Assembly (NCBI GenBank): GCA_963663995.1
Contig: OY760660.1
Span: 240,001 to 272,000 of the forward strand
Direction of reading: 5' to 3'
Source: Erysipelotrichaceae bacterium
GTDB taxonomy: Bacteria > Bacillota_I > Bacilli_A > Erysipelotrichales > Erysipelotrichaceae
DNA: 32,000 nucleotides
Below are positions 5,859 to 24,501 of the stretch, piece by piece (the first letter of the stretch is position 1; every line of letters starts with the position of its first letter). A model generated the notes under the pieces. That model was not told the origin of the DNA and made no database searches. It saw only the letters and a program-made list of their open reading frames with translations. A program made the translations under genes and the position numbers.

Positions 5859-5932
5859 GCGGATGTAGTTCAATGGTAGAACTTCAGCCTTCCAAGCTGA
5901 CTACGTGGGTTCGATTCCCATCATCCGCTCCA
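5859..5932 (+). tRNA. tRNA-Gly (anticodon TCC); its 3' end is the att core of the downstream islands
   Basis: Acceptor GCGGATG/CATCCGC, anticodon stem CAGC/GCTG with loop CTTCCAA, T-arm GTGGG-TTCGATT-CCCAT, encoded CCA. The last 17 nt recur four times downstream. Confidence 0.9.
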
Positions 5933-5943
5933 ATAGTCAAATT

Positions 5944-5967
5944 AGCCCTTAAATAAAGGGTTTTTTT
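5944..5967 (+). terminator. Terminator hairpin after tRNA-Gly
   Basis: CCCTT (5946-5950) pairs with AAGGG (5956-5960), followed by T7. Confidence 0.55.
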
Positions 5968-6061: not shown

Positions 6062-7366
6062 TTACTCAAATGATTTTTGCATTTTCTTTTCTTTTTCTTT
6101 AAACATATGTGCATAAATGTCTTCTACCATTCTTTGTGTATTTCCAAGACTATCTGCAACATCTTTTGAATTATAACCTTCATCTATTAGCGTCGATGCA
6201 CTACTATGTCGAAAATCGTGTAATCTCATATGCTCTAAACCAGCTTCTTTTAAGTATTTTTCTTCATATCTTCTTACAGTAGTAGGACTGAGTCTGACTT
6301 GTCCCTGTCTACGTTTAGCGGTTGTAAAACTGGAGAATAATGGTAATTTACTACTATAAATACCTTTTTCTTTATAATAATTTATTAAGTTCATTATATG
6401 ATGATGAGCAATATCACCCACGTATTTTTCGCGTGTACTATTTTCGGTTTTTGTTTCTGTTATTAAATTGTTAACATTATCCCAATTATTTTTAATATCT
6501 AATATGCGTTTTTCAGGATCGTAGTCTTCAACTAAAAGAACTAAGCATTCTCCAATTCTCATTGACAGCGTATATAAAATTGAATAGATTGCTAGATCTT
6601 GGAGTTTTTGCAATTGATTAATCTTACCATTTTTATTGGTATGACACTCAATTGTTTTCATTAAATGTTTGAATTGTTCTTTATCGATAATTTGGTATTT
6701 CAGTTTTTCTTTTGTTTTAAAACTACTTTTAGTTATAGTGAATTTTTCAAAATATTTAAATGGATTAACTTCAATATAATCTTGATTTTTTGCATATGTG
6801 AAAATTGATTTGAAAAGTGTTTGGATATTTATTAAAGTGCTCTTGGATAATCCATAAGTTACTTCTTTTTGTGAACCAGCATATTTCGTGTATGTTGCAC
6901 TCTGTAAATAATCACGCCATTCTTCGATATCCTCTTTTTTAATTTTATCTATTGATTTAGTGATATTTTTATAATCTTCTAGTTTTAATCCGTGTAGTTT
7001 GTTTTTGTCAATTCCTGGTAATAAAAAATTAGGAAGAATATGTTTTAGTGCTTTTGTTGATAAGTCATAATGACTTCTTTCTTTATGCTTTTTGAAATCA
7101 ACCTTTTTGTCTAGATATTCAATAAACACTGAAGCAATCGATTTTGAACACATTGATAGAACTTGCTCAGGATTTTGTAACTGTTCTTTTAAAAGTTCTA
7201 AGGCTGTTTCTGCTTCATCTTTACCCCATTTCATGCGCCCTTTTCTTACTTTATGAGTTTTTTTATTTTCATCTTTATAGACTAAATAATAACCCCACAT
7301 TGACGAACCGTTTCTTGTGATTTGCTTTGTTTCTTCCTTTACAACTTTAGTTAACATGTGCTTCAT
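6062..7366 (-). CDS. int: Tyrosine-type site-specific integrase
   Basis: C-terminal catalytic signature: SMRIGE (box I Arg), HDFRHSSAS (H-x-x-R), and DIYAHM (Tyr nucleophile region). N-terminal arm-binding-like region WGYYLVYKDENKKTHKVRKGRMKWGKDEAE. Sits next to a tRNA. Confidence 0.9.
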   Translation of the reverse strand: MKHMLTKVVKEETKQITRNGSSMWGYYLVYKDENKKTHKVRKGRMKWGKDEAETALELLKEQLQNPEQVLSMCSKSIASVFIEYLDKKVDFKKHKERSHYDLSTKALKHILPNFLLPGIDKNKLHGLKLEDYKNITKSIDKIKKEDIEEWRDYLQSATYTKYAGSQKEVTYGLSKSTLINIQTLFKSIFTYAKNQDYIEVNPFKYFEKFTITKSSFKTKEKLKYQIIDKEQFKHLMKTIECHTNKNGKINQLQKLQDLAIYSILYTLSMRIGECLVLLVEDYDPEKRILDIKNNWDNVNNLITETKTENSTREKYVGDIAHHHIMNLINYYKEKGIYSSKLPLFSSFTTAKRRQGQVRLSPTTVRRYEEKYLKEAGLEHMRLHDFRHSSASTLIDEGYNSKDVADSLGNTQRMVEDIYAHMFKEKEKKMQKSFE

Positions 7367-7785: not shown

Positions 7786-10700
7786 ATGAGTGATGTTTTA
7801 GATGCGAATTTAGAAAAAGCGACTGCAACAACACAATATGAATACGATGCAGCCAATCGCTTGATTGCCGAGATTGATCCTTATGGTAAACAAACGCTGA
7901 CTGAATATGATGGAATGGGTCGAATTCTAACCATCACAACAAAAGCACCTAATACTGTAGATATTTTAGAAGTCGCTTATCAATATGATGAAAATGGGAA
8001 TGTCATTGAAAAAACAGAAAGTGGGGCTGTTAGCACTTATGTTTATAATGAACTCAATGAGTTGATTGAAGAAATAACACCTACCAGTCTTCATATCTTT
8101 TATACTTATGATCGCAATCATCGTTTGATTAGCACAGCGAAAACTTCATCAGAAGTTTATAATGCAGAAGCATCTGACTTAAGAGTAACGAGTCAAAAAT
8201 ACGATTATCTTGGCCGTCTTGTTGATAGTATGGATGAATTAGGACGTCATCAATTGATTCGTTATGATGCATATGGAAATGTTAATGCAAGCATTAGTTA
8301 TGATGGGCAGTTTGTCAGAAATACATATAGCGCTAACAACCAACTTGAAATCAGCATTGATGCGCGAGGTAATAAGACTGAATATCACTATAATGAACTC
8401 AATCAACTTGTTTCAATCATTGATGATGAAGGAAATATCAGTCGATTTGTTTATGATGCACTTGGTAATATCATTCAAAGTGAAAATGCTTTAGGAGAAA
8501 TCCAAAGTTTTGAAGTTGATATGTATGGCAATATCACACGTCAAGTTGATGCATTAGGGCATGTCATCACATCATCCTACGGACCTCAATCCCTACTTAA
8601 AGAGCAAATCACCTTTGATTCTGAACAAAATGAATTACTTAGAACCATTTATACCTATGATTTACTAAATCGTTTAATCAAAGAGAAAACAATTTATACC
8701 AATCCTCTGACCAATTCTCAAGAAATCACGGTTGTGCAAAATATGTATGACATTCTTGGAGATATGGTAAAGCACGTTGATGCGCGCAATTATGAAACAA
8801 GTTACGTGTATAACTTTGCCCATCAAGTCATGCAAATCGATTATCCTAATGGTCTTAAGGTTCAAAATACCTATGATCAAGATACAAAACTACTCATAGA
8901 AACAAAGAAAATTGATACGACCTTAGTCAATAGTGATCGCATCAATCAATTTGAATACAATGCTTTTGGTGAAATCATCCAAGAGACTTATGCAAACAAC
9001 AGTTTCAAGACAAATGACTATGGTCATGCAGGTGAACTCTTAAGTGAAAGCTTCTCTAACGATGATTTAGTTTCTTCATCTGATGATTACATTAAAACTT
9101 ACCAATATGATGAAAATGGACGTTTAGTAGGCATATCTGATAATGCAAACTACAATGAGTCAACAGATACTTATGCATCACAAACACTAGAGTTAAGAAC
9201 ATACAATAGCTTTGGCGATTTGGCCTCTGTTACCACACAAAGTGGTCTTGTCACAGAATATAGTTATGATCACTTTGGTCGAAAAATCGAAGAACGTGTG
9301 AAAGATGTTTTAGTTGAAACCAGTGTAAATGGAAGTCTTGTAAGTTCAACACAAGATTTAACGACATCCTATAGTTATGATAAACTCAGTCGAGTTACTC
9401 AAATGGTTTATCCAAATGGACTAACAGAATCATCTGTTTATGATGCAAGTGGTAATATCTTATCTAAATCAAGTTCAGATAATATAACAACAAAGACTGA
9501 ATCTTATGTCTATGATGCACTCAATCATCCAATAAAAGTCATCTACGCAAATTTGGATGAAACGAATTCCATTTATAATGCTTTAGGACAACTAGTCAAA
9601 ACCATTACAACGAGTGGTGAAAGCACCATTTATACCTATGATACTAATGGCAATTTGATCAAAAAGGAAATCTTTACCTCTAATGATCAATTAGCTCAAA
9701 AAACAGAATATGTCTATGATGGCATGAATCAACTCACTCAAACAAAAGAATTAAGAGTTGTTGATAGTATTGAATCTTATGCCCTAACAACCAATACCTA
9801 TAATGTATTTGGCGATTTAGAATCTGTCCAAGATCCAAAAGGATATCTTGTTGAATATGCCTATGATGAAATGGGAAATCAAATCAAAATTACCTATGCA
9901 TCAGAAAACGAAATCAATATGACTTATACAGCCAGTGGTTTATTAAGCGAAAAGACATATTCAACTAAGAATACAGATCCTTTCAACCTCTTTACCAGCC
10001 ATGAAGTTTATACTTACCTGATTGATGGAAAACTCGCTAGCTTCAGTGATAACCCTCCAACATCCAGCAGTGAAAGTCACAAGTCAGTTGTTTACAGCTA
10101 TGAAAATGGTGTTTTAAGTCAAGTTGAAACAAAACTCAGCTCTATGAGTGGAACCCTTGAAACCATAACGAATTGCGATCGTGTATCGTACAGCTATGAT
10201 GCTTTAGGAAGAGTCACGACAATGAGTGATTTAAATGGTCATACAAGCACTCATTATGATGCACAAGGCAATATCAGTGGAGTTGAGCGTATTAATGAAA
10301 CTGTACAATTGGATTTAAACTTCAATGAAGTCAGTCGTTCAACTACAAGTAGTAGCCTTGTTCAATATACTTATGATAAATGGGGCAATCAAACAAGCAT
10401 CATCTATCCAGATGCAAGCAGTGTTACTAAGACTTATGATGTGATGAATCGTTTAACATCTGTGAGTGATGGTGTGGATGTGACAAGCTATGTTTATGAC
10501 AACCAAAATCAAACAGTTACAGAAACCCATTTAGATGGTAGTCAAAAAGTCACAAGCTACCAATTAGGTAAAACAATCAGTGTAGTCTCAAGCCATTATG
10601 ATGCATTCTATGACACACAAATAGTAGATTTCTCACAAATCTTGACCTATGATACTCAACAAAACGTCATTCATGAAGAAAGACTTCAAAATGGTGAAAC

Positions 10701-12777
10701 AACGATTATTGATAATACATACAATGATCGTGGTGAATTGACTCAAAGTCATCAAACAGAAGGACTAAGAGAGACAATCTACTCTTATCAAAGTAATATC
10801 TTTGGCAATAAGAGTCATTTAACTGAATATTATTATGATGGTGATCTCGTCTTTAGTGAATCCACCAGCATGACCTATAACCATCTCAATCAACTTGAGA
10901 CTTCGATTACATCAGGTGTGACTACAAACTACAGTTATGATGATTATGGTAACCTCATTGAAGAGAATGATGGAACCCATAGTATTACCTATACCTATGA
11001 CTTAAATAACAAGTTGATAGGTGTAGTCGATGGTTCTAGTAGCTTAAGTTTCATTTATGATGGAGCAGGTAATCGATTAAGTAAGGTTGTTGATAGTATA
11101 CAAGTTGACTATGTCAATGACATCACTGAAGACAATACCAATGTCTTAAGTTATCAAGTAGACTCAGCTACTACAAACCTTGTCTATGGCAATGAATTAC
11201 TCAGTGAAAACAGTGTTTTCTATTTAAGCGATGCTTATGGGAATATTGTTCAACATGGAAGTGAATCCTATGCTTATGATCCTTATGGATCACTTACTCA
11301 AGGAAGTATTGATAGTATTAATGAAGTCGGGTACAAAGGTGAAGTACATGATACCAGTGATTTACAATACCTAAGAGCTAGAACCTATAGTACCAAACTT
11401 CATCAGTTCCTAAGTGAAGATACCTATACAGGTCAAGCAGGATCACCACTCTCACAAAACAGATACCTCTTTGCGATGAATAATCCATTTAAGTATTCTG
11501 ATCCTAGTGGGCATTACTTTGTGGAAGAGGATGTTGTCTTAACAGGAACACAAACAGCTCAAGCGATTCAAACGTCGTATGCAAAAGCAAATCCAACCTT
11601 TGATTACGCAGTAACTACACCAGTTACAACAACAACGACCACAAACGTTGTAAGTAATACAGTTTACAATCCAGTAAATTACACTAGCCCAGTCATAACA
11701 AGTTCCGGTTCTATTTATGCACAATCACAAGCAGGACCAACCTATTCTGGTTATAACAATTATCAATTACTACATTCTTATCCAACCAATGTATCAAATA
11801 CAAAGTCAGCTACAGCCCAAAGAGATAAGAATGTTGTAGAGAAACTTATTGAATTTGAAAACGATGCTAACCATGCATCAATCGCAAAAGGAACATTGAA
11901 TGTTATTGCAGGTGTTGTTGGTGTAGGTATTGGAATCATTGCGCTAGCAGGAATCGCAGCGGCTACATTGACAGCTGCGCCAGCCATTATTTTGGCTTCT
12001 GCTGCTGTTGGTTCAATTGCTTATGGAACATCGAATACCGTTGAAGGCATTAATCAAATCAAGCTTGGAACACAAGGTAAAGGAAGTGAAAGAGCCTTTA
12101 ATCCATTACGAGATACTGTGTTTAAAGACAACGAAGGTCTATATAACGCTATTGGAATAGTCAGCACATTACTTACTTCTGGGGGTTTATCTGCGATAAG
12201 TGAAGGAGGAAATCTTGCATCTGTAGCTTCTAGTGTTATGATGAATACAACTAAACAAGTAGCTACCGGTTCTGTTTCAATAGGTATAGGAAAAGTCGCT
12301 GAAGAGGTTACAGGAAGTAAGACAATTGGCTTTGCGACAGGCTTGATAACTGCAGCTATTGCATATCCTCAGATTAGCAAGGGCATGGATAAAGCAGTTA
12401 GTGCAATTAGTGTATTTAAAGAAAAAGTTGCTAATGCGAATATTATATTTGAAAGCAACACTACAACGAGTATAGGTTTTGATAGTTTCAATGATGCTAA
12501 AAAATTCTTAGGTTCACCAGGGGTGGGTAATCAATGGCATCATATCGTGGAACAATCACAAATACAAAAGTCAGGCTTCGCAACACAATTAATCCAAAAC
12601 ACAGATAATCTTATCCCTGTCGATAAAGCTACTCATGCAAACATAAGTGGATACTATTCTTCAAAGCAAGTGTTTACAGGAGGGAAAACAGTTAGAAACT
12701 GGTTGATTGGACAAAGTTACGAAAAGCAATTTGAGTTTGGAATACAAAAACTAATAGATTTCGGGGTATTTAAATAA
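7786..12777 (+). CDS. RHS/YD-repeat polymorphic toxin, apparently 5'-truncated, with a C-terminal WHH-type HNH/EndoVII nuclease domain
   Basis: Dozens of YD repeats (YxYDxxGN/R). RHS repeat-associated core ends with LQYLRARTYSTKLHQFLSEDTY...NRYLFAMNNPFKYSDPSGH (DPSGH at 11500-11514). Then an S/T-rich linker, a Gly/Ala-rich hydrophobic module, and the terminal GNQWHHIVEQ...THANISGYY (WHH at 12535-12543). The frame is open from 7492 and YD-repeat sequence already starts near 7531, upstream of the first Met at 7786. No signal peptide or N-terminal domain. Confidence 0.85.
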   Translation: MSDVLDANLEKATATTQYEYDAANRLIAEIDPYGKQTLTEYDGMGRILTITTKAPNTVDILEVAYQYDENGNVIEKTESGAVSTYVYNELNELIEEITPTSLHIFYTYDRNHRLISTAKTSSEVYNAEASDLRVTSQKYDYLGRLVDSMDELGRHQLIRYDAYGNVNASISYDGQFVRNTYSANNQLEISIDARGNKTEYHYNELNQLVSIIDDEGNISRFVYDALGNIIQSENALGEIQSFEVDMYGNITRQVDALGHVITSSYGPQSLLKEQITFDSEQNELLRTIYTYDLLNRLIKEKTIYTNPLTNSQEITVVQNMYDILGDMVKHVDARNYETSYVYNFAHQVMQIDYPNGLKVQNTYDQDTKLLIETKKIDTTLVNSDRINQFEYNAFGEIIQETYANNSFKTNDYGHAGELLSESFSNDDLVSSSDDYIKTYQYDENGRLVGISDNANYNESTDTYASQTLELRTYNSFGDLASVTTQSGLVTEYSYDHFGRKIEERVKDVLVETSVNGSLVSSTQDLTTSYSYDKLSRVTQMVYPNGLTESSVYDASGNILSKSSSDNITTKTESYVYDALNHPIKVIYANLDETNSIYNALGQLVKTITTSGESTIYTYDTNGNLIKKEIFTSNDQLAQKTEYVYDGMNQLTQTKELRVVDSIESYALTTNTYNVFGDLESVQDPKGYLVEYAYDEMGNQIKITYASENEINMTYTASGLLSEKTYSTKNTDPFNLFTSHEVYTYLIDGKLASFSDNPPTSSSESHKSVVYSYENGVLSQVETKLSSMSGTLETITNCDRVSYSYDALGRVTTMSDLNGHTSTHYDAQGNISGVERINETVQLDLNFNEVSRSTTSSSLVQYTYDKWGNQTSIIYPDASSVTKTYDVMNRLTSVSDGVDVTSYVYDNQNQTVTETHLDGSQKVTSYQLGKTISVVSSHYDAFYDTQIVDFSQILTYDTQQNVIHEERLQNGETTIIDNTYNDRGELTQSHQTEGLRETIYSYQSNIFGNKSHLTEYYYDGDLVFSESTSMTYNHLNQLETSITSGVTTNYSYDDYGNLIEENDGTHSITYTYDLNNKLIGVVDGSSSLSFIYDGAGNRLSKVVDSIQVDYVNDITEDNTNVLSYQVDSATTNLVYGNELLSENSVFYLSDAYGNIVQHGSESYAYDPYGSLTQGSIDSINEVGYKGEVHDTSDLQYLRARTYSTKLHQFLSEDTYTGQAGSPLSQNRYLFAMNNPFKYSDPSGHYFVEEDVVLTGTQTAQAIQTSYAKANPTFDYAVTTPVTTTTTTNVVSNTVYNPVNYTSPVITSSGSIYAQSQAGPTYSGYNNYQLLHSYPTNVSNTKSATAQRDKNVVEKLIEFENDANHASIAKGTLNVIAGVVGVGIGIIALAGIAAATLTAAPAIILASAAVGSIAYGTSNTVEGINQIKLGTQGKGSERAFNPLRDTVFKDNEGLYNAIGIVSTLLTSGGLSAISEGGNLASVASSVMMNTTKQVATGSVSIGIGKVAEEVTGSKTIGFATGLITAAIAYPQISKGMDKAVSAISVFKEKVANANIIFESNTTTSIGFDSFNDAKKFLGSPGVGNQWHHIVEQSQIQKSGFATQLIQNTDNLIPVDKATHANISGYYSSKQVFTGGKTVRNWLIGQSYEKQFEFGIQKLIDFGVFK
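10745..11585 (+). repeat. Copy 1 of a 0.84-kb direct repeat (3' part of the RHS core)
   Basis: Collinear with 13415-14255 (offset 2670). I counted 4 mismatches in the first ~520 bp, with mismatches much denser towards the 3' end. Confidence 0.9.
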
Positions 12778-13296: not shown

Positions 13297-13416
13297 ATGA
13301 AACTAATAAGTAAAGCAGCTGCCATTGAACTGTATATTTCAAGTTGTAAAATTATGTATGAAGTAACTTTAACAGGTGATTATAAAGCAAATAATAGGGA
13401 AGGTAAAAAATATTAA
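13297..13416 (+). pseudogene. Truncated paralogue of the immunity gene (39 codons)
   Basis: MKLISKAAAIELYISSCKIMYEVTLTGDYKANNREGKKY*. TGDYKANNR aligns with DGNYKAANK of the 12777 immunity protein. The ORF stops exactly where the RHS repeat copy 2 begins. Confidence 0.4.
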
Positions 13417-14255
13417 AGTCATCAAACAGAAGGACTCAGAGAGACAATCTATTCTTATCAAAGCAATATCTTTGGCAATAAGAGTCATTTAACTGAATAT
13501 TATTATGATGGTGATCTCGTCTTTAGTGAATCCACCAGCATGACCTATAACCATCTCAATCAACTTGAGACTTCGATTACATCAGGTGTGACTACAAACT
13601 ACAGTTATGATGATTATGGAAACCTCATTGAAGAGAATGATGGAACCCATAGTATTACCTATACCTATGACTTAAATAACAAGTTGATAGGTGTAGTCGA
13701 TGGTTCTAGTAGCTTAAGTTTCATTTATGATGGAGCAGGTAATCGATTAAGTAAGGTTGTTGATAGTATACAAGTTGACTATGTCAATGACATCACTGAA
13801 GACAATACCAATGTCTTAAGTTATCAAGTAGACTCAGCTACTACAAACCTTGTCTATGGCAATGAATTACTCAGTGAAAACAGTGTTTTCTATTTAAGCG
13901 ATGCTTATGGGAATATTGTTCAACATGGAAGTGAATCCTATGCTTATGACCCTTATGGAGCACTCACTGAAGGAAGTATTGATAGTGTTAATGAAGTCGG
14001 GTACAAAGGTGAAGTACATGATACCAGTGATTTACAATACCTAAGAGCTAGAACCTATAGTACCAAACTTCATCAATTCCTAACTGAAGATACCTATACT
14101 GGTCAAGCAGGATCACCGCTCTCACAAAACAGATACATCTTTGCATTAAACAATCCATTTAAGTATTCTGATCCTACTGGGCATTACTTTGTGGAAGAGG
14201 ATGTTGTCTTAACAGGTTCACAAACAGCTCAAGCAATTCAAAATTCATATGAAAA
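13415..14255 (+). repeat. Copy 2 of the 0.84-kb direct repeat (5' part of the orphan RHS cassette)
   Basis: See 10745-11585. A TAA at 13414-13416 immediately precedes the homologous reading frame. Confidence 0.9.
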
Positions 14256-15642
14256 GGCAACAAGCTCTACAAGTACAAATTCAGGTGCACCTTTGTATGA
14301 TGATTTAGCTCCAACTATTAGACCACCTAAGATTGATAGTGCACCACCACTACTGCCTGGACCTATTTATCTAGCATCACAAGCACTTTTATATGACGAT
14401 TTAGAATATCAAGTTGTTAAATCAAGTCCTGTATTACCTAATAATCAGTCTTATATGTTGAATTACATTAGTCCTGAAACTTTTCAACAAGTTACAGAAT
14501 ATAAACGAAGTTCTATGAGTATTCAAACTGACCCGTATAATACGTATAATGGATATGTTGATTACAAAGGGAACATGACCCGTGAACAACAGAAAATCTA
14601 TGAACAAACATTGAATCCAGCAGCTGCTTTTGATCAATGGAAGAACGAAGATGTTAATCGAAAAGCGATTTTTGATGGGATTGAAACAGTTGTAGGTGGA
14701 GTCGTTACAGCAGCAGTAGGTGTTGGAACCATATTGGGTGCAGCCACTGCAGCACCCATCATCGCAACAATTGTTGGCATCGCTGGTGTTGGTAGTTTAT
14801 TATATGGATTATCAAATGCTTTTGAAGGAATACACAAGCTTAGCTTAGGTTTAAATGGACATGGTGGAGACAGGTCATTTAATCTAATAAGAGACACGTT
14901 GTTCTTAGGAAATAGTGATTTATATCTTTTAGTAGGAGCGACAACTACTTTATTCTCAGCAAGTGGGCTTGGCGCGATTGCGGGTGGTGCAACTAGTGGA
15001 ATGAAGTTTGCTACTAGTGTACTAACACAATTAACGAAGTTTTCAGCAACTGGTGCTTTGTCCATTGGAGTAGGTTCAGTTGTTGAAGCGGCAAGTAAGA
15101 GTGAAACACTAGGTAAATTCGCAGCAATTACAACCGCTATTAAAACCTATCCACACATAAGCAAGGGTATAGATAAAGCAATAAGTGTTGTGAGTGATGT
15201 TGCATCAAATATCTCAAGTTATGTGAATGCTAATAAGGTCAATTCAAAAAATGATTTATATACAGGAGTTAAAGAAGCATCAGAATTTCTCAAGTCACAA
15301 AATGTTCCACGTGATTATAGAAAGCAGATTCTCGAATCATTTGATGTACGAACCATAAAAATGGAAACTGCTGGTGACTCAACTTATGGTATTAGATTTT
15401 ATGGTGGAAATGCTCAAGCAAAAGGTAGATACTTATTTGAAACTTTTTCAAATACGACAAATAGAAATAACTTAGCATTACCTAATCAGTTTAATACTAT
15501 GACAGGATTACAACAATTTCAGGTTAAAAGCGGAACGCAAATGATTACAGGAAATACAGCACCGCAACTACAGTATGGTTCTCAATATTTAGGAGGAGCT
15601 AAGCAATGGTACATAAGCAATTTGGAGGCATTATTAAAATGA
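13540..15642 (+). CDS. Orphan RHS C-terminal cassette: RHS core end, hydrophobic pre-toxin module and an alternative toxin tip (TNT/NADase-like?)
   Basis: RHS-homologous frame is open from 13417, with the first Met at 13540 and no RBS. DPTGH at 14170-14184. The sequence diverges from the main gene after about 14255. C-terminal ~130 aa: YGIRFYGGNAQAKGRYLFE...RNNLALP...FQVKSGTQMITGNTAPQLQYGSQYLGGAKQWY. Confidence 0.8.
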   Translation: MTYNHLNQLETSITSGVTTNYSYDDYGNLIEENDGTHSITYTYDLNNKLIGVVDGSSSLSFIYDGAGNRLSKVVDSIQVDYVNDITEDNTNVLSYQVDSATTNLVYGNELLSENSVFYLSDAYGNIVQHGSESYAYDPYGALTEGSIDSVNEVGYKGEVHDTSDLQYLRARTYSTKLHQFLTEDTYTGQAGSPLSQNRYIFALNNPFKYSDPTGHYFVEEDVVLTGSQTAQAIQNSYEKATSSTSTNSGAPLYDDLAPTIRPPKIDSAPPLLPGPIYLASQALLYDDLEYQVVKSSPVLPNNQSYMLNYISPETFQQVTEYKRSSMSIQTDPYNTYNGYVDYKGNMTREQQKIYEQTLNPAAAFDQWKNEDVNRKAIFDGIETVVGGVVTAAVGVGTILGAATAAPIIATIVGIAGVGSLLYGLSNAFEGIHKLSLGLNGHGGDRSFNLIRDTLFLGNSDLYLLVGATTTLFSASGLGAIAGGATSGMKFATSVLTQLTKFSATGALSIGVGSVVEAASKSETLGKFAAITTAIKTYPHISKGIDKAISVVSDVASNISSYVNANKVNSKNDLYTGVKEASEFLKSQNVPRDYRKQILESFDVRTIKMETAGDSTYGIRFYGGNAQAKGRYLFETFSNTTNRNNLALPNQFNTMTGLQQFQVKSGTQMITGNTAPQLQYGSQYLGGAKQWYISNLEALLK

Positions 15643-17373: not shown

Positions 17374-17390
17374 TCCCATCATCCGCTCCA
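17374..17390 (+). repeat. att core copy 2 (17/17 identical to the tRNA-Gly 3' end)
   Basis: TCCCATCATCCGCTCCA, followed by the hairpin AAGCCC-ATAAAA-GGGCTT plus a T-run (17401-17423). Confidence 0.9.
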
Positions 17391-17474
17391 TATGACATTT
17401 AAGCCCATAAAAGGGCTTTTTTTGTTGTAAAATCGAGTAAAACTATATAAAATTCTATAAAATTTAAATCTATA

Positions 17475-17502: not shown

Positions 17503-17686
17503 AGAGATAACTCAAAATCATATTTTATCTAACATTTTTATATTATATTAGTGAAATATGATTAAATATTAACTTGTCTTTACAATGTTGAGACTATTAA
17601 TTAACAATAGATTCATTAAGTAAAATTTTATAGGAATGATGCTATAATTTAATTGTTATTACAAATAGTTGTTTTGGGGGTATTCA

Positions 17687-18406
17687 ATGTTGAAATTAGA
17701 TAGAAAATACATGCTTATTTATGTGTTTGTACTATTTTACTCTATATTTCCTAAGTTTATATTTAATAATACAATCGAATTTACATATACTTTCATGATA
17801 TTTATTACGCTTTTAATAATAGGCACTTTTATTTTTATGTACATTGATCTTCTCAAAAATAAAGATGTACTGAAAAATATAAAAAATGTAAGCACAATTG
17901 ATAAAGTATATTCTTTAATTAAGATAATTGTTATAAACTTGTTTGTTTTTATAACAGCTTTCTTGTTGTATTTTATCTCAGGCAATGTAATCAGACTTAT
18001 TACTGAGCTTATGAAAAATAATAGTGTTAATATATCTGCAATCTTTGATTTTCATCCAAGATTTAATATATTTGTTATTGTGATCGCTGGTATTTTTGGT
18101 TCACTATATCCTGTTTTCGTTATTAGTTTATATCTGATTTTTATTATTCTATATTTGTCAAAAGAAAGTAAATATAATTGGTACAATTCTCATTTCATGC
18201 TTTTCGTTTTAGTTTCGATGACTTTGTATTTTATATACACAATTTGGGAATTTTTTATATCAATTAATTCAACTTTTAGTATATTTCGTTTAGATTATTT
18301 TCTTTACTCTTTAGTGATAACAGTTTTTCCATATTTACTTTTTGTTAAACGAAAGAAATTAATGAATCTTATTTTCAAATACACATGTAATATTAACTAT
18401 TTCTAA
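17687..18406 (+). CDS. Polytopic membrane protein, unknown function
   Basis: About 7 hydrophobic segments and no recognisable motif. The ORF-track start at 17669 is a TTG; the first ATG is at 17687. Confidence 0.5.
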   Translation: MLKLDRKYMLIYVFVLFYSIFPKFIFNNTIEFTYTFMIFITLLIIGTFIFMYIDLLKNKDVLKNIKNVSTIDKVYSLIKIIVINLFVFITAFLLYFISGNVIRLITELMKNNSVNISAIFDFHPRFNIFVIVIAGIFGSLYPVFVISLYLIFIILYLSKESKYNWYNSHFMLFVLVSMTLYFIYTIWEFFISINSTFSIFRLDYFLYSLVITVFPYLLFVKRKKLMNLIFKYTCNINYF

Positions 18407-18525
18407 AATTTAATATCATTATATTTTTCTTATCAAGTTCAAACTATATCACTAGCTGATGATGATTGTATTTATAATAATAGAAATTAGTTTTCATTAA
18501 AGAAAATTAAAAAGGGGGATTAATT

Positions 18526-18987
18526 ATGAAAATAGGTATTAAAAAAACAGTTTATACATGCGCTTTATTTTCAGTTGGATTATTTATACTCAATTTTTAT
18601 GTTTCTCTGTACATGTATATGGAAGAGGCTGCATACAAAATTGAAGTAAACAAAGTAGTGCAACTACATTACCTTGCGATGATCATATGTTTTATTTTTG
18701 GAATTCTTATTGAATCAAACCGTATCATTGCGTTTTTACAGAAAAAAATTCAATTTAAATTGACTGCAGTATTCATAATCGGTTTGATAATGTTTTCAAT
18801 CGGATTAATTTCAGCCACAACTTATATAAGTTGGTTTGGATTAGAGTTTTGGCAACCATTTCCTAGAGGAAGAATAGGTATTAACATGTTTGTTGGAATA
18901 TTAACTAAAACAATTAGTATTCAATCCATATTAAGTGTTGTTGGAGGTACTTTGGTTGTTAAAGGATTATTTCCAGACAACTATTAA
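18526..18987 (+). CDS. Polytopic membrane protein, unknown function
   Basis: 153 aa with about 4 TM segments. Strong RBS AAGGGGGA 7 nt upstream. Confidence 0.55.
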   Translation: MKIGIKKTVYTCALFSVGLFILNFYVSLYMYMEEAAYKIEVNKVVQLHYLAMIICFIFGILIESNRIIAFLQKKIQFKLTAVFIIGLIMFSIGLISATTYISWFGLEFWQPFPRGRIGINMFVGILTKTISIQSILSVVGGTLVVKGLFPDNY

Positions 18988-19211: not shown

Positions 19212-19228
19212 TCCAATCATCCGCTCCA
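19212..19228 (+). repeat. att core copy 3 (16/17)
   Basis: TCCAATCATCCGCTCCA, followed by the hairpin AAGCCT-ATAAAA-AGGCTT plus a T-run (19239-19261). Confidence 0.85.
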
Positions 19229-19409
19229 TAAGAGATTTAAGCCTATAAAAAGGCTTTTTTTGTTATAAAATTTAACAAAACTGCATAAAAATTCATGAAA
19301 CATATATCTTTATGAGCCAGATACACATCGTATATTTTTTATGTAACTACATGAACTATGATTATGATTATTTTTTTGAAACACTGTTCTTTAAAAGTAT
19401 CCGTTGGAG

Positions 19410-20648
19410 TTAATTGCTATACATCCAATTCAAAAGGGTTATTTTCTCTTTATAATAAATGATGGCTACTTTGTACTTGCTTCGATTTTCATAATATGTA
19501 ATCAGTCGATCTAGTACGAATTCATAGTTTTCAAAATTCCGTGTATCTTTAGTTATTGAATGAAGTTGAAGCAGTTTAGATTCAAGTTTAGTTTCATTGT
19601 TGCTATATTCACACTGTATAATCTCCATTTCGAGTTTGTACATTGGATCAGTAAAACTGAATATTTTATTTTGATAGAGTTGATTAGCTTCTTGTGTCTG
19701 ACTTAATTGATAAAGACATGAACACTTAATAAAGATTCCATTTTCTGATAATTCTTGTTCAAGTTCTATTTGTTTTAAATATTCTAATGAGTCTTTATAT
19801 TCTTTATTTAGAAATGAGAACCAAGCTAGATTGTAGAGGATGACAATCTCTGTTTCTGTATCTAGAGTTGTCGAAAGAATCCGTTTGTACATTTTTTGTG
19901 ATGTTCTAAAATGTCCTAACTTTGAATTTATAGAAGCACTATGGATTTGCATATGTGTTAGTCGTTTTAGATTGCGTGTTTTAAGAAAATAATCCTCTGC
20001 AATTTCACTCAAAGACAAAGCTTTATTTAGTTTTCCATAATACGTATAAATAAACGATGCATGGTAATGAATTAATCCAGCGCTACTTTCTCTAGTTTCA
20101 TATTGAAGGGCACGATCAATCGTATTAACCGCTTCTTGAATTTGATTGTTTTTAAGAAGTTCAATCGCTTTGTAATCATAGTATAGCTGTTTGAGTTCAA
20201 TCTCAAAAAGATGGACATTTTTAATCACATATTGATATGAATCAAGATCATAATGAAGACCTAATATATGCAGGATATAAAAGATTGTATGATATTGATT
20301 CATAACTTCTGAGTAGAAGATATACTGATTGGCTAATCTTACTTGATGAATCAATCTTTCAATTTCTATTTCATTATCGAAAATGATAGATTCTAATAGA
20401 TCATTCAAATCTTCATTGAGTTTATCTTCAATATAAAGCACTGATTCTAAGTTAATATTTAAATATCGTGCTAAAGTATGAATGTTTTCTTGATTGAGAT
20501 CTCGTAATCCAATTTCGTATTTAGAAAGACTTTGATAGCTGTAACTTGTTAGTTCTGATAACTCTCTAAGCGTAAGATTTTTCTGCTTACGAGCATCAGA
20601 AAGAAGTTTTAAGATATTGATGTTTTGAAAAGTTAGTTTGTCGCCCAT
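19410..20648 (-). CDS. RNPP/Rgg-like transcriptional regulator (N-terminal XRE-type HTH and C-terminal TPR-like helical repeats)
   Basis: HTH: KQKNLTLRELSELTSYSYQSLSKYEIGLRDLNQENIHTLARYLNI. This is followed by ~350 aa of helical-repeat sequence (e.g. AGLIHYHASFIYTYYGKLNKALSLSEIAEDYF, ILYNLAWFSFLNKEYKDSLEYL). The ORF-track start at 20714 is a TTG; the ATG at 20648 (MGDKLTF) is conserved in the paralogue. Confidence 0.7.
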   Translation of the reverse strand: MGDKLTFQNINILKLLSDARKQKNLTLRELSELTSYSYQSLSKYEIGLRDLNQENIHTLARYLNINLESVLYIEDKLNEDLNDLLESIIFDNEIEIERLIHQVRLANQYIFYSEVMNQYHTIFYILHILGLHYDLDSYQYVIKNVHLFEIELKQLYYDYKAIELLKNNQIQEAVNTIDRALQYETRESSAGLIHYHASFIYTYYGKLNKALSLSEIAEDYFLKTRNLKRLTHMQIHSASINSKLGHFRTSQKMYKRILSTTLDTETEIVILYNLAWFSFLNKEYKDSLEYLKQIELEQELSENGIFIKCSCLYQLSQTQEANQLYQNKIFSFTDPMYKLEMEIIQCEYSNNETKLESKLLQLHSITKDTRNFENYEFVLDRLITYYENRSKYKVAIIYYKEKITLLNWMYSN

Positions 20649-20753
20649 AATTAGTATAATTATACAATTCAAATTTGAAATTGTCCGAAATTTGTAGACA
20701 AGATCGTTTCTCAAATTAGATATAATTGATATATAAGAAAGGTGGGTGGCTGA

Positions 20754-20813
20754 ATGATTGAACTCTACTACTTAATAATCGATTTGTTTGATATGGTATT
20801 GCCTAAGTTTTAA
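20754..20813 (+). CDS. Unannotated 19-codon hydrophobic peptide ORF (candidate SHP-like signalling pro-peptide)
   Basis: AAAGGTGGGTGG RBS 4 nt upstream of the ATG. Encodes MIELYYLIIDLFDMVLPKF. Divergent from the regulator across a 105-bp intergenic region. The paralogue at 22856-22915 differs at 5 nt: 4 synonymous and 1 Leu-to-Ile. Confidence 0.55.
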   Translation: MIELYYLIIDLFDMVLPKF

Positions 20814-20865
20814 GACTAATAAGAATTTATTAAAATGTCATGATTATGACAATGAAAGGGAGTTT

Positions 20866-21948
20866 ATGAGAATTCTAAAAAGTTTATTTGTTATATTGTT
20901 TTTCATTAGTTTGACTAGTCCAGTGAATGCGAGCACTGATGAGATTACATTTCAAGATAATTTCAATTATAATGGGCACGATTATAAAATGGTAATAGAG
21001 TATTTGAATCCACAAAGAGAATTAAATGATTTTTTGTCGAATCATTCCGAATTTTATAATGATATTTATTTAGCTTTTGGTGGCATTAGTTTAACTGAAA
21101 GTAGTATTTCTTCATTTAAACTGAAAGAAAATGAATTATATACAAATAATTTGCAAAAATATTTGGAATTCTCCGATGATTTTGATGATTTCAATTCATT
21201 CTTAGATATTTACGAAAACACATTTATTAATAGCTCCATAAGAAGTTATGTGAATTTAAAATCAGTTGATGAAAATATTAACTATATTTTCGAAAATTTA
21301 CCATATGATGAAGCTGTATTGTTTAGAAGTAATAATTTAACTTTATTATCAAGTACAATAAGTAAAAGTACTAGAGCTATAAAGAATATATCAGCAGGTG
21401 TTTCCTATGCTCAACAATATGCTTTAGCTCCTAATACAATTGACAAATATAATTATTTTCTAGGCACGGATTGTACAAATTTCGGATCACAAATAATGGA
21501 AGCGATGGGTGTCTTACAAAACTATCCTGGAACTAATGATGCATATAAAGGTTGGTGGCATAAAATTACAAAAACTTATAATCCTTATACAAACTCTTAT
21601 GATTATACACACTATTATTCATCTTCCTTTATTAATACACAATCATTTGCATTGTATTTTGGTATTTACAATAAATACACATCATTTTTAACATTCAGTC
21701 AAAATGTAAAAGTGGGTGATTTTATTTTGATTGATGAAAGTAGAGATGATGCTTGGGATCATCTTGGATTTGTAACATCAATATCACCAAGTTCGAGTAC
21801 TTATATTGATGAGAATGGCGTAAGTAGAACGTATTATAATTTTAAAGTTGCTCAGCATTCAAGCAATTATCATGCATTTGTAAATTCTAGTACAAATAAT
21901 TGGGAACAAAAAAACAATACAAGAACATATGGTATTCTTAAGAGATAA
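20866..21948 (+). CDS. Secreted protein with a C-terminal putative amidase domain (Amidase_6 / NlpC-P60-like Cys-His)
   Basis: GGGAG RBS, then MRILKSLFVILFFISLTSPVNA|S signal peptide. The C-terminal half has YAQQYA...GTDCTNFGSQIMEAMGV (21469-21483 encodes DCTNF), VGDFILID...WDHLGFV and VAQHSSNY, matching the DCTNFvSQ...H pattern of the putative amidase domain family. The ORF-track start at 20788 is an upstream TTG in non-conserved sequence. Confidence 0.65.
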   Translation: MRILKSLFVILFFISLTSPVNASTDEITFQDNFNYNGHDYKMVIEYLNPQRELNDFLSNHSEFYNDIYLAFGGISLTESSISSFKLKENELYTNNLQKYLEFSDDFDDFNSFLDIYENTFINSSIRSYVNLKSVDENINYIFENLPYDEAVLFRSNNLTLLSSTISKSTRAIKNISAGVSYAQQYALAPNTIDKYNYFLGTDCTNFGSQIMEAMGVLQNYPGTNDAYKGWWHKITKTYNPYTNSYDYTHYYSSSFINTQSFALYFGIYNKYTSFLTFSQNVKVGDFILIDESRDDAWDHLGFVTSISPSSSTYIDENGVSRTYYNFKVAQHSSNYHAFVNSSTNNWEQKNNTRTYGILKR

Positions 21949-22195
21949 GTGGAAAATAATCGTTTGTACTATTTGGCTAATAGTATTTATATTTGATTAT
22001 GGTTCTGTGTTAAACGGAAAAAAACCTACTTTTATTGTTCCTGTTGAATTTCAGTTTAATCTTGATGAGGCCAAATATCTGTATATAGGATTGGGGTATG
22101 GGGTTGTCTATAAAGAATATCCTCCTGAAGTCATAATTGTTCAGGCTGACTTCTATATTTTATGTTTTAAGATACAGTCAATAAATTCTTACTGA
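21929..22195 (+). CDS. Small membrane-anchored protein (possible immunity/partner of the amidase-domain protein)
   Basis: 88 aa with one N-terminal TM (IIVCTIWLIVFIFDYG). Overlaps the upstream gene by 20 nt. Confidence 0.4.
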   Translation: MVFLRDKWKIIVCTIWLIVFIFDYGSVLNGKKPTFIVPVEFQFNLDEAKYLYIGLGYGVVYKEYPPEVIIVQADFYILCFKIQSINSY

Positions 22196-22274
22196 TGTTA
22201 TGTTTTGATATTTTGTTGTTATTGTTTTGCATATAATAAATGAAAGTTGTGAAATAGGACTCATTTTTTGTACG

Positions 22275-22294
22275 CTGGGTCACAACTGGGTCAC
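22275..22294 (+). repeat. CTGGGTCAC x2, right arm of islet 3
   Basis: Copies at 22275-22283 and 22286-22294. Confidence 0.7.
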
Positions 22295-22399
22295 GAAATA
22301 CTAAAAATCTTAGTAACCTTATAAATTCATGTATAATCTTGTTATAGAATATTCAGTTATATTGCGTTTTATCAGGTTTTACAAGAGAAACATGGTAAG

Positions 22400-22416
22400 T
22401 CCCATCATCCGCTCCA
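22400..22416 (+). repeat. att core copy 4 (17/17)
   Basis: TCCCATCATCCGCTCCA, followed by the hairpin AAGCCT-ATAAAA-AGGCTT plus a T-run (22427-22450). Confidence 0.9.
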
Positions 22417-22588
22417 TAAGAGATTTAAGCCTATAAAAAGGCTTTTTTTTGTCGTAAAATTGAACAAAACTACATAAAAATTCATAAAACTTATATCTTT
22501 ATGACCCAGATGGTTAATATATATTTTTATGTGACTACCTGAATTATGATTATGAATATTTTATTTGAAACGATGATCTTTAAAAATA

Positions 22589-22750
22589 TTATAGGGAGTT
22601 AATTGTTATACCAATTTCGTATTTAGAAAGACTTTGATAGCTGTAACTTGTCAGTTCTGATAACTCTCTAAGAGTAAGATTTTTCTGCTTACGAGTATCA
22701 GAAAGTAGTTTTAAGATATCAATTTTTTGAAAAGTTAGTTTGTCGCCCAT
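22589..22750 (-). pseudogene. Truncated RNPP-like regulator (HTH only, 53 codons)
   Basis: MGDKLTFQKIDILKLLSDTRKQKNLTLRELSELTSYSYQSLSKYEIG is near-identical to the N-terminus of the 19410-20648 product, then a new short tail. The ~1.08-kb TPR-coding part is missing, and the junction is at CCAATT (22611-22616). Confidence 0.7.
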
Positions 22751-22855
22751 AATTAACATTATTATACAACTCAATTTTGAAAATGTCCGAAATTTGTAGA
22801 CAAGATCGTATCACAAATTAGATATAATTTATAAATGGGAAAGGTGGGTGGCTAG

Positions 22856-22915
22856 ATGATTGAACTCTATTACATAATAATCGATCTGTTTGATATGGTT
22901 TTACCTAAGTTTTAA
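22856..22915 (+). CDS. Second copy of the 19-codon hydrophobic peptide ORF
   Basis: The same RBS (AAAGGTGGGTGG). Encodes MIELYYIIIDLFDMVLPKF. Confidence 0.5.
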   Translation: MIELYYIIIDLFDMVLPKF

Positions 22916-22967
22916 GACTAATAAGAATTTATTAAAATGTCATGATTATTACAATGAAAGGGAGTTT

Positions 22968-23624
22968 ATGAGAATTCTAAAAAGTATATTCGCATTATTG
23001 TTTTTCGTTAGTTTATTAAGTCCAGTCAGTGCGAGTACTAATGAGATATTTGTAGGTGAAACTACTGTCACAAATATAGAAATTGATGGGATTAATTATA
23101 CATATACACAATATTCCACAGAATCAAGTAATTTTATGTTAGTAGATGATGGTAATTCTATAGATATATTTGAATATAATTTACAAACAAATATATTATT
23201 AATGAATAATGAACTATTTGGGATTACTAGGTTTACTACATCATATAGTAGAGCAGCTTCTTGCACTATTCCTTTACTAACTGGATTAAGAGATGAACAA
23301 GGGAATTTAGCTGTTTATGAAGGTTGTGCAACTTCAAATATTCCAGTTGGAACTGCTACAACAGCAGCACTTGCTGCAAAATCAATTTTCACAGGTGTGC
23401 CTGTAATTGTTATTCAGAACAAACTATTATCATACCTTGCAAAAACAGTACTACCTCTATATTTAGACAAAGCAATGTCATCTGCAAGACAACAGTATAG
23501 ATCTAAATATACTATGCTAGATCCGTATTCTGGATTGTATAAATATAAGAGATTATATAATTCATATATATATGTAATAAATTATAAATTGTATGGTCCA
23601 AGTGCGTCAGGTTGGTTCTTTTAA
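22968..23624 (+). CDS. Secreted protein of unknown function (shares its signal peptide with the amidase-domain protein)
   Basis: MRILKSIFALLFFVSLLSPVSA|S is homologous to the 20866 leader. The mature part is unrelated and no family was recognised. Confidence 0.55.
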   Translation: MRILKSIFALLFFVSLLSPVSASTNEIFVGETTVTNIEIDGINYTYTQYSTESSNFMLVDDGNSIDIFEYNLQTNILLMNNELFGITRFTTSYSRAASCTIPLLTGLRDEQGNLAVYEGCATSNIPVGTATTAALAAKSIFTGVPVIVIQNKLLSYLAKTVLPLYLDKAMSSARQQYRSKYTMLDPYSGLYKYKRLYNSYIYVINYKLYGPSASGWFF

Positions 23625-23635
23625 TTCGCTAAATT

Positions 23636-23932
23636 ATGAAAAAAATTCAATGTCCACATTGCCAATTTAAATTAAATAAATCGACTATTCTTAGTTTGAT
23701 TTTGTTTGATGTCAATTGTCCAAATTGTAAAAGTCGCTTAGGATTTATTAAAGGAAAAAGAACACAACCAATAATAGTTTTGATTATATTAATAAGTTAC
23801 AGTGTAATAAAAACAGAGTTGATAATTTATATAGCATATTCTTTCCTAATATGGAACTTAGGTTCGTTATGGGATATTTACAAAAATGGATTATATGAGA
23901 TTGATTCACATAATAGTTGTGAAAATGATTGA
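23636..23932 (+). CDS. Zinc-ribbon membrane protein
   Basis: CPHC...CPNC pair at the N-terminus, followed by two TM segments. 98 aa. Confidence 0.45.
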   Translation: MKKIQCPHCQFKLNKSTILSLILFDVNCPNCKSRLGFIKGKRTQPIIVLIILISYSVIKTELIIYIAYSFLIWNLGSLWDIYKNGLYEIDSHNSCEND

Positions 23933-24284
23933 TTAATAATCTTTAAATTAATAAAAAACATAAAATATAATATGATAAAAAAGCAAAGATTAGTAACTTG
24001 TTAGAAGTTTATTGTAATGTAAAAGAACTAGTTACAAGTGAATGCTATTGATGATTTTATAAGCTAAGTGAACCATTCAATGAATCACTTGGTTTTAATT
24101 TAGAGTTGATTTATTATTATTTTCGTTTGAAATGTAATTTAAAATATTTTGTCTTGTTTTTGTAATTTTCCACCTAATTATAATTAATTAGGATATTTGA
24201 GTTAATGGTTTATGGTGGTGAAAAGATATATGTAAGTATTAATACTATGTAAATAGAAGAAAAATATAAATTATGCTTAATGTG

Positions 24285-24304
24285 CTGGGTCACAACTGGG
24301 TCAC
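24285..24304 (+). repeat. CTGGGTCAC x2, right arm of islet 4
   Basis: Copies at 24285-24293 and 24296-24304. Confidence 0.7.
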
Positions 24305-24410
24305 GAAATACTAAATATCTAAATAAATCTTATTAATTCATGTATAATCTTGTTATAGATTATTCAGTTATATTGCGTTTTATTTAGATTTACATGAGGT
24401 AAATGGTAAG

Positions 24411-24427
24411 TCCCATCATCCGCTCCA
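24411..24427 (+). repeat. att core copy 5 (17/17), distal boundary of the accessory region
   Basis: TCCCATCATCCGCTCCA, followed by the hairpin AGCTCC-TTATA-GGAGCT plus a T-run (24439-24461). Confidence 0.9.
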
Positions 24428-24501
24428 TATGATACTTCAGCTCCTTATAGGAGCTTTTTTTGTAAAGTTTTAAGTATTTTTTATGAAGATTATTTCATTT
24501 G

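Follow-up and report, generated by a model that had tools for sequence, protein, structure and literature searches.

Does an open reading frame (ORF) of only 19 codons encode the ligand of the regulator from whose gene it diverges? The question is raised by a locus in a stretch of 32,000 nucleotides from an Erysipelotrichaceae bacterium (contig OY760660.1, positions 240,001 to 272,000; hereafter, the window). Here, the gene of a protein with a helix-turn-helix (HTH) domain and tetratricopeptide repeat (TPR)-like helices lies back to back with the short ORF, and an earlier note drawn up from the letters alone (the sequence-only reading) had proposed the product of the latter as the cognate peptide partner of an RNPP-type regulator. 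This core idea is strongly supported by comparison with related loci, in which the frame, the length and the Shine-Dalgarno (SD) site are conserved, selection is specific to that frame, a C-terminal motif is kept down to 30% regulator identity, and the motif is fused to a Sec signal in one clade. The best explanation, and a likely one, is a new receptor-propeptide pair of the RRNPPA superfamily in Erysipelotrichaceae-like bacteria, on the nine-TPR NprR/Rap side of that superfamily.

The small ORF and its relatives

The ORF lies where the sequence-only reading had placed it (Table 1), behind a strong ribosome-binding site and divergent from the regulator, with the two start codons 105 nt apart. 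Both this distance and the length of 412 residues for the regulator follow from an ATG on the complementary strand at 20646-20648; a TTG start listed for the regulator at 20714 was rejected as an artefactual extension. The product of the small ORF is 19 residues long, largely hydrophobic and anionic (three acidic residues, one Lys), with Pro-Lys near its C-terminus and no Sec-type signal, and its conserved part is the C-terminal D-x-V-L-P-K-F. Of the features of the short hydrophobic peptide (SHP) type of propeptide, a hydrophobic core, conserved acidic residues and a conserved C-terminus are seen here. The basic N-terminus of that type is absent; the earlier caution that a Lys/Arg patch is missing holds for all eight close sequences. 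A second copy of the ORF exists in the window, and it differs from the first, as had been described, at five of 60 nucleotides, namely by four synonymous changes and one replacement (L7I). In a simulation of random substitution for the two in-genome copies, at least four synonymous changes out of five were obtained with P = 0.003.

Related loci were taken from contigs encoding homologues of the regulator and from genome and metagenome scans, and those with a regulator 57-89% identical and a contig extending far enough upstream form the close set (n = 6: L001-L005 and L008). A divergent ORF with an SD site was found in all six, 97-111 nt from the regulator ATG. It has 19 codons plus a stop in five of them (L001, MIVFYCCVIDLFDTVLPKF; L002, MDNLYQFIIDMFDLVLPKF; L003, MIELYHLIIELFDMVLPKF; L004, MTELYYLINNLFDMVLPKF; L008, MNELYYFIINLLDMVLPKF), and the remaining one is cut by the contig end (L005, MNGFYGFMVELLELVLP...). 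Such recurrence in length, SD site and frame is more than chance. The sequence-only reading had proposed a dN/dS comparison of homologous loci, and had named a frame broken in the homologues as an observation that would speak against a peptide gene. In the seven complete sequences, purifying selection is confined to the small-ORF frame (pN/pS of 0.29, vs 0.74 and 2.20 in the other two frames), and start, stop, length and SD site are kept in every complete close locus. Variability by codon position in the same sequences is 20 for the third, 10 for the first and 7 for the second position. Constraint is tightest in the C-terminal ten codons (ratio of 0.20), and no segment of the intergenic region is more conserved than the second half of the ORF (identity of 0.87, seven loci). 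On these comparisons, the small ORF is very probably a translated gene under selection, and the lesson for annotation is that the element conserved best at the locus is a gene of 19 codons that gene callers overlooked.

In more distant relatives, the motif [DE]-x-V-x-P-K-[FI]-stop is recognized in divergent small ORFs down to 30-40% regulator identity. It is encoded by different codons, GAT ATG GTA TTG CCT AAG TTT as against GAA TCA GTT ATA CCA AAG ATT and GAC TGG GTT CAT CCT AAA ATC in distant loci. The divergent small ORF of L010 (regulator 38% identical) reads MELNAIIEIILVALESVIPKI behind AAGAGGAG, that of L017 (40%) ends in ...ILESVLPKI, and those of L011, L013 and L015 (30-33%) read MKKLMVVTLLCLLSFGFVS[VI]GSPVVSP[LM]DWV[HY]PKI. 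In the last three loci, the family motif comes after a Sec-type signal peptide whose N-terminus is basic and whose core is hydrophobic. Retention of the motif through different codons, together with its fusion to a signal peptide, is expected of a secreted signalling peptide with a C-terminal ligand, and is not expected of a leader peptide, a toxin or non-coding DNA. An adjacent small ORF, as is characteristic of RRNPPA systems, is present in the window (two copies) and in L001-L005, L008, L010, L011, L013, L015 and L017. In exact look-ups, the 35-aa version of the peptide was found on record as a 'hypothetical protein' on 51 contigs and the 21-aa version was absent; a literature search with the motif VLPKF gave no bacterial signalling paper. 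That the small ORF encodes the precursor of the divergent receptor's ligand is quite probable on this evidence, binding being predicted.

The receptor and the intergenic region

Pfam HTH_3 matches residues 18-68 of the regulator (E = 4.6e-10), and matches to helical-repeat families are weak. A profile of the family (11 members) matches the TPR domain of NprR (4gpk, 5dbk) over residues 73-407 with an E-value of ~1e-4. The AlphaFold2 model of the regulator has a pLDDT of 90.5, and the top 30 Foldseek matches in the PDB are all NprR and Rap proteins (TM-score of 0.55-0.71), whereas PlcR and Rgg2 are far lower in the ranking, Rgg2 (4yv9) at rank 41 with a TM-score of 0.22-0.31. The family-invariant N273 and N303 align, in a hidden Markov model (HMM) alignment that is weak (E ~1e-4), with Asn275 and Asn306 of NprR, which form hydrogen bonds with the backbone of NprX; Asn275 is conserved across the RNPP family (PMC3763537). 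Because the sequence identity is only 14-16%, NprR is regarded as a distant relative and not as an orthologue. No Rgg family model matched the regulator in Pfam (E up to 0.01) or NCBIfam (E up to 0.1). The sequence-only reading had seen an Rgg-type regulator and an SHP/Rgg system. The first of these claims is ruled out by the length of 412 aa (vs ~285), the missing Rgg family match and the fold search, all of which leave the receptor in the nine-TPR NprR/Rap clan; of the second, the layout stands, and it is also that of PrgX/PrgQ and RopB/LCP.

All RRNPPA subfamilies except Rap have an N-terminal HTH. Every feature of the superfamily that could be looked for is present here: a TPR-like superhelix in a protein of 250-500 aa, an N-terminal HTH, an adjacent small ORF and the Asn residues of the groove. 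The close family is rare, with 13 proteins in a database of 5.8 billion. In a sensitive search of 1.84 billion cluster representatives, the number of clusters found was 11 for E<1e-30 and 180 for E<1e-10, nearly all of them of ~410 aa, and the family forms a minor branch within a larger group of uncharacterised HTH-TPR proteins. Its closest genome match is an Erysipelotrichaceae metagenome-assembled genome, and scans of viral contigs with a DNA pattern and with the regulator profile gave no match.

The second most conserved segment of the intergenic region is a box of 23 nt (identity of 0.84, seven loci), the GAGACAA core of which is invariant in the alignment. Within the window, the box exists only at the two cassettes, and no other regulon members were found. 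No good -35 sequence is present 16-19 nt from the -10 of the peptide promoter, which suggests activator dependence, and since the core of the box ends 17 nt upstream of this -10, the box occupies the -35 position. Class II activators of the RRNPPA superfamily usually bind at that position. The -10 of the putative regulator promoter falls within a block (ATTATACA on the + strand) conserved in most aligned loci, and this promoter overlaps the left part of the box, so that autoregulation is plausible. A strong palindromic operator was considered and rejected: only a weak TTGTC-N11-GACAA, with a left arm that is not conserved, was recognized, and no palindrome is common to both copies. The candidate site is therefore left as a 'conserved box'. 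A consensus of the NprR box was not found in PMC3325205.

No terminator lies between the small ORF and the cargo gene, and the two genes are therefore probably co-transcribed. The sequence-only reading had pointed out that the 52 nt between them are even better conserved than the ORF. This is correct within the genome (51 of 52 positions), but not across loci, where the spacer has a mean identity of 0.67 and is among the less conserved segments; the in-genome identity is thus ascribed to recent duplication and not to a functional spacer element. The spacer also contains a palindrome, TGTCATGATTATGACA, at 20836-20851, which is partly kept in L001, L003 and L004, has its TGTC/GACA ends in common with the upstream TTGTC-N11-GACAA and is possibly a second protein-binding site.

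A full quorum-sensing model, with export, re-import and activation, is predicted with fair confidence; we infer every step from translation through export, processing and import to binding, and also whether regulation is by activation or by repression. The start of a basal transcript would lie ~7 nt beyond the TATAAT at 20721-20726, and this transcript would carry the peptide ORF, the secreted cargo and a small membrane protein, in that order. The peptide would leave the cell without a Sec signal, be trimmed to a C-terminal fragment with D-x-V-L-P-K-F and, once re-imported, bind in the TPR groove of the receptor, with its backbone in contact with the invariant Asn273 and Asn303. The loaded receptor would then bind the box at the -35 position and activate the operon, resulting in positive feedback and density-dependent release of the cargo, and it might also repress its own overlapping promoter. 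The second cassette (22783-23932) has lost its receptor; since it is identical to the first in its box and in the C-terminus of its peptide, the intact receptor would control it in trans.

Alternative explanations and known systems

The peptide could be real and receptor-bound and nevertheless be an inhibitor or anti-pheromone, or act only inside the producing cell. In pCF10, the inhibitor iCF10 is encoded by prgQ, divergent from prgX, and the activating signal comes from elsewhere; the order of receptor, divergent small ORF and target operon is the same here, and the 19-mer has no recognisable export signal. In addition, the signal peptide of the cargo is conspicuously conserved, and enterococcal sex pheromones derive from signal peptides. 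The data fit agonist and antagonist alike. The presence of the motif behind a Sec-type signal peptide in a distant clade argues for an extracellular step. We regard an inhibitory or purely internal role as unlikely. A lower probability still is given to a hydrophobic effector co-regulated with the cargo (a membrane-active toxin, a leaderless bacteriocin, a peptide resembling phenol-soluble modulins or a type I toxin), which would make the small ORF something other than a ligand gene. The peptide is close in size to Ibs-type toxins and its island is rich in competition genes (RHS toxins, secreted amidase). However, its anionic composition and the Pro-Lys near its C-terminus do not favour such a role, and conservation is focused on the C-terminal heptad and not on an amphipathic or transmembrane helix. 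The ORF, moreover, accompanies the receptor in most of the readable loci (about a dozen), even where the cargo is different or absent, and no antisense RNA or terminator signature was seen.

The sequence-only reading had also allowed for a leader peptide or a purely regulatory role. A cis-acting leader peptide, controlling the downstream secreted protein by attenuation or translational coupling, would account for an ORF that is followed at 52 nt by the cargo gene within one transcript, and for the near identity of the spacer in the two in-genome copies. An RNA leader or attenuator was rejected on the minimum free energy of the region, which is not significant (z = +0.87), and on the count of covarying pairs, which is 0; no terminator or anti-terminator was found. 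The spacer is unconserved between species, as described above, the cargo gene has its own SD site, and the next gene in L010 is ~170 nt away. Conservation of the amino acids, moreover, extends to 30% receptor identity and includes the version with a signal peptide. This role is accordingly disfavoured as very improbable. It is hardly credible, finally, that there is no gene at all, and that the conserved DNA is a promoter, operator or 5' untranslated region in which the frame is open by accident. The ORF is indeed very short, the genome is AT-rich, and flanking non-coding DNA is also conserved between the in-genome copies. Against this, substitutions fall on third positions, pN/pS is low in the small-ORF frame only, start, stop, length and SD site do not vary among the complete close loci, and the motif is retained through different codons in distant ones.

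Several observations weigh against a receptor-propeptide pair. The independent loci examined number only about 12. The peptide, with a net negative charge and a non-basic N-terminus, does not look like a Sec signal and also departs from the SHP/PptAB pattern in its canonical form, and opp, pptAB and eep genes are not in view in the 32-kb window, such transporter genes lying outside it. On the side of the receptor, the HMM similarity to NprR is weak (E ~1e-4, 14-16% identity), Arg126 of NprR (KRD motif) falls unaligned in an insertion relative to the family profile, and the candidate operator has no strong palindrome. In L006 and L016 (regulators ~40% identical), no recognisable homologous ORF was found, and L007 has no convincing one, only a doubtful 34-aa ORF ending in DFVLWI. 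In L017, on the divergent strand ~110-175 nt upstream of the regulator ATG at 1655, the conserved end ...ILESVLPKI is not in the frame of the ATG that follows the SD site. The cause may be a TTG start, a frameshift or an assembly error. The contigs of L017 and L002 are both automatic assemblies.

L006 (5790-5860) and L016, both beside merR-like genes, keep an SD-like GGGGGAG where the ORF with the family motif is absent. In L006, an SHP-like ORF of another kind, MIMNKISCIISLILIMNINLLGD, has a terminator behind it, and no conserved counterpart of it exists in L016; the peptide gene has either decayed or been replaced in these loci.

By its receptor, the proposed pair is nearest to NprR/NprX of the Bacillus cereus group, and by layout and peptide type to Rgg/SHP, ComR/XIP, PrgX/PrgQ and RopB/LCP. 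Like NprR (423 aa), the receptor (412 aa) has an HTH and a long TPR superhelix, the best profile and structural matches are to NprR, the equivalents of Asn275 and Asn306 are conserved, and the peptide, like NprX, has one conserved acidic residue and one conserved Lys. It is different in its low identity and in the unaligned KRD/Arg126 motif, by which NprR binds the Asp and the C-terminal carboxylate of its peptide, and the host is Erysipelotrichaceae-like and does not belong to the Bacillales. Furthermore, nprX is co-oriented with nprR, downstream of it, and encodes a Sec propeptide of ~43 aa, whereas the peptide gene here is divergent, upstream, 19 codons long and devoid of a signal peptide. 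Orientation and size of the peptide, its lack of a signal peptide and the unaligned KRD motif place the system outside NprR/NprX proper. With Rgg/SHP and ComR/ComS (XIP), the system has in common a short hydrophobic propeptide without a Sec signal, with conserved acidic residues and a C-terminus expected to be active, and a peptide gene that points away from the receptor gene and immediately precedes the regulated genes, a positive-feedback layout. In contrast to Rgg/SHP, the receptor is 412 aa long vs ~285, is structurally far from Rgg2 and matches no Rgg family, and the peptide has no basic N-terminus of the kind typical of SHPs. Rgg receptors have ~280-290 aa, five TPR-like repeats and a C-terminal domain of the Rgg type. 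PrgX/PrgQ of pCF10 also consists of a divergent receptor and a peptide ORF (~22 aa) with a target operon downstream and an active C-terminal heptapeptide; PrgX, however, is a repressor of the five-TPR-like type, and PrgQ gives rise to an inhibitory peptide in competition with a chromosomal pheromone; a second peptide of this kind is not known for the present system. RopB and its leaderless communication peptides (LCPs; SIP) resemble the present case in having a signal-less peptide divergent from an RRNPPA receptor, beside target genes for secreted effectors or antimicrobials (PMC10518010). LCPs come from ultrasmall ORFs of 8-9 aa, the product being the mature signal as it stands, and are sensed by receptors of the five-TPR RopB/Rgg clan (PMC10518010), whereas the peptide described here has 19 codons, is probably trimmed, is strongly conserved only in its C-terminal half and is paired with a nine-TPR receptor.

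Sec export is the ancestral state, and propeptides of the non-Sec type originated in the five-TPR PrgX-TraA-ComR-Rgg clade (PMC12700828). A nine-TPR receptor with a signal-less peptide, and with relatives whose Sec-type peptides have the motif in common with it, would represent a second, independent transition to Sec loss. The known propeptides of the nine-TPR NprR/Rap clan are Sec-exported, and loss of the signal is so far on record only for the five-TPR Rgg/ComR/PrgX/RopB clade; in the present lineage, there may have been an independent shift from a 35-aa Sec propeptide (...SPLDWVHPKI) to a signal-less peptide of 19-21 aa in which the C-terminal motif was kept. Because related receptors are accompanied by one motif in peptides with or without a Sec signal, the export of signal-less pheromones becomes testable by comparison. 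Erysipelotrichaceae are not mentioned in the main texts of the RRNPPA surveys PMC9765709, PMC10075063, PMC12700828 and PMC10518010 or in supplements of PMC10075063, and an earlier cataloguing of the system is possible. If confirmed, the pair would extend RRNPPA peptide quorum sensing to Erysipelotrichaceae-like gut- and animal-associated bacteria. Computational discovery of RRNPPA pairs is now common; the present one is distinctive in that an NprR-like receptor is paired with a short peptide devoid of a signal, in that its relatives form a series with and without a Sec signal, and in its cassette with exchangeable cargo.

Cargo genes and the tRNA-Gly island

The cargo proteins of the cassettes have 360, 218, 218, 255, 187 and 167 aa, and an all-against-all BLASTP comparison showed that they have only their first ~25 residues in common, a signal peptide of the form MRILKSLFxLLFFISLxSPVxA that is found in both cargo genes of the window (20866-20940 and 22968-23042) and in those of L001, L003 and L004. 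The homology stops at the predicted signal-peptidase site. The only exception is the pair of 218-aa cargos, one in islet 4 and the other in L001, with an identity of 59% from end to end. A conserved module thus extends from the 5' end of the regulator to the signal-peptidase site, and the mature domains behind it are exchangeable, as if they were exchanged by recombination behind a fixed 5' module. The 218-aa cargo of the window has only five homologues in 5.8 billion proteins, none of them named, and its structure model has a pLDDT of 36.7, too low to be of use. In L002, the cargo gene (~5010-5012) has ATA where the others have ATG.

Of the small proteins encoded after the cargo genes, the 88-aa hydrophobic one is a possible immunity or accessory protein. 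The zinc-ribbon membrane architecture of the 98-aa protein recurs in L001 (4507-4743 and 4876-5127) and L011 (3321-3584), and in L013 and L015 it is encoded ~405-670 nt upstream of the regulator on the divergent strand. In the clade of L011, L013 and L015, with 30% regulator identity, it directly follows the peptide gene, and it may be a core partner of the system and not cargo.

A cargo that is a putative cell-wall amidase, with RHS toxin genes in its neighbourhood, suggests that the cargo proteins may be density-controlled competition factors with immunity-like partners. More generally, a pheromone switch tied to exchangeable secreted proteins, each with small membrane proteins encoded after it, on a tRNA-Gly island with RHS toxins would suggest density-controlled interbacterial competition. 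The box, the promoter, the peptide gene, the SD site and the signal peptide may form a portable cassette behind which unrelated secreted effectors are swapped in, possibly by recombination at the signal-peptide boundary, and receptor-less cassettes such as that at 22783-23932 may be wired in trans to a single receptor. The joint reading, a second loss of the Sec signal in the nine-TPR clan together with a portable quorum-controlled secretion cassette, is offered tentatively, the balance lying slightly on the side of doubt.

Table 1. Coordinates of the receptor-peptide cassettes and associated features in the window
Feature	Position	Strand	Remarks
Receptor/regulator gene, 412 aa	19410..20648	-	N-terminal HTH_3 and ~17 TPR-like repeat helices; NprR/Rap-like fold
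Putative regulator promoter, CGGACA-17-TATAAT	20659..20687	-	consensus scan and alignment
Conserved intergenic box, core AAATTTGTAGACAAGA	20681..20703	.	candidate regulator-binding site (presumed function)
TATAAT, -10 of the peptide/cargo promoter	20721..20726	+	TATAAT or TACAAT in 8/8 aligned loci
SD region of the small ORF, AAAGGTGGGTGG	20738..20749	+	ends 4 nt before the ATG; SD site in all homologous loci
Small ORF, candidate pheromone propeptide	20754..20813	+	ATG at 20754, 19 sense codons, TAA; MIELYYLIIDLFDMVLPKF
Spacer between small ORF and cargo gene, 52 nt	20814..20865	+	carries the cargo SD site GAAAGGGAG
Cargo gene 1, secreted 360-aa protein	20866..21948	+	Amidase_6 PF12671, E 3.7e-13; weak CHAP match
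Small hydrophobic protein after cargo 1, 88 aa	21929..22195	+	61% identical to an 87-aa ORF in L003
Terminator hairpin closing the operon	22427..22444	+	part of a tRNA-Gly 3' end and terminator repeat
Regulator remnant, islet 4	22589..22750	-	first ~46 codons (part of the HTH); partial HTH_3 match only
Second copy of the conserved box, orphan cassette	22783..22805	.	
Second small ORF	22856..22915	+	MIELYYIIIDLFDMVLPKF; C-terminal 12 residues identical to copy 1
Cargo gene 2, secreted 218-aa protein	22968..23624	+	no known domain; signal peptide of cargo 1, unrelated mature part
Zinc-ribbon (CxxC...CxxC) protein, 98 aa	23636..23932	+	two predicted membrane helices; weak TIGR04104 match
tRNA-Gly 3' end and terminator repeats	5916-5966, 17374-17424, 19212-19262, 22400-22450, 24411-24461		

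From guaA, the window continues through a cluster of tRNA genes, the last of them tRNA-Gly (5859-5932). The 3' 17 nt of this tRNA gene (TCCCATCATCCGCTCCA), together with a terminator hairpin, are present in five copies in the window, and these repeats bound four tandem islets downstream of RHS toxin genes and a tyrosine integrase (6062-7366); the 434-aa ORF of the latter was considered as a second regulator and rejected, as it is not a paralogue. The islets have ~60 nt after and ~160 nt before each repeat in common (repeat families D1, D4 and D5), an arrangement that looks like serial integration at one attachment (att) site or cassette amplification. Islet 3 (~19262-22450) contains the intact regulator, the small ORF, the 360-aa Amidase_6 protein and the 88-aa ORF, and islet 4 (~22450-24461) contains a deleted regulator, the second small ORF, the 218-aa secreted protein and the 98-aa zinc-ribbon membrane protein; the operons of both are closed by a terminator of tRNA-repeat origin. 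In islet 4, the regulator has suffered an internal deletion in which codons ~47 to the end were lost, homology to the intact copy ending at 22611, and the 53-aa ORF with a partial HTH that is left could be expressed. The junction of this deletion lies at a short CCAATT repeat that is found at both ends of the intact regulator gene.

Islet 2 (17669-18987) encodes multi-pass membrane proteins of 245 and 153 aa without a Pfam match, and has no peptide cassette even though its ends match those of islets 3 and 4. An RHS-repeat protein of 1663 aa (7786-12777) is followed by a 700-aa RHS fragment (13540-15642), with small ORFs after each, and a stretch of 300 nt is 99% identical between the two RHS genes (10745-11044 and 13415-13714). 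The pair is arranged as an RHS toxin and its orphan C-terminal toxin/immunity cassette would be.

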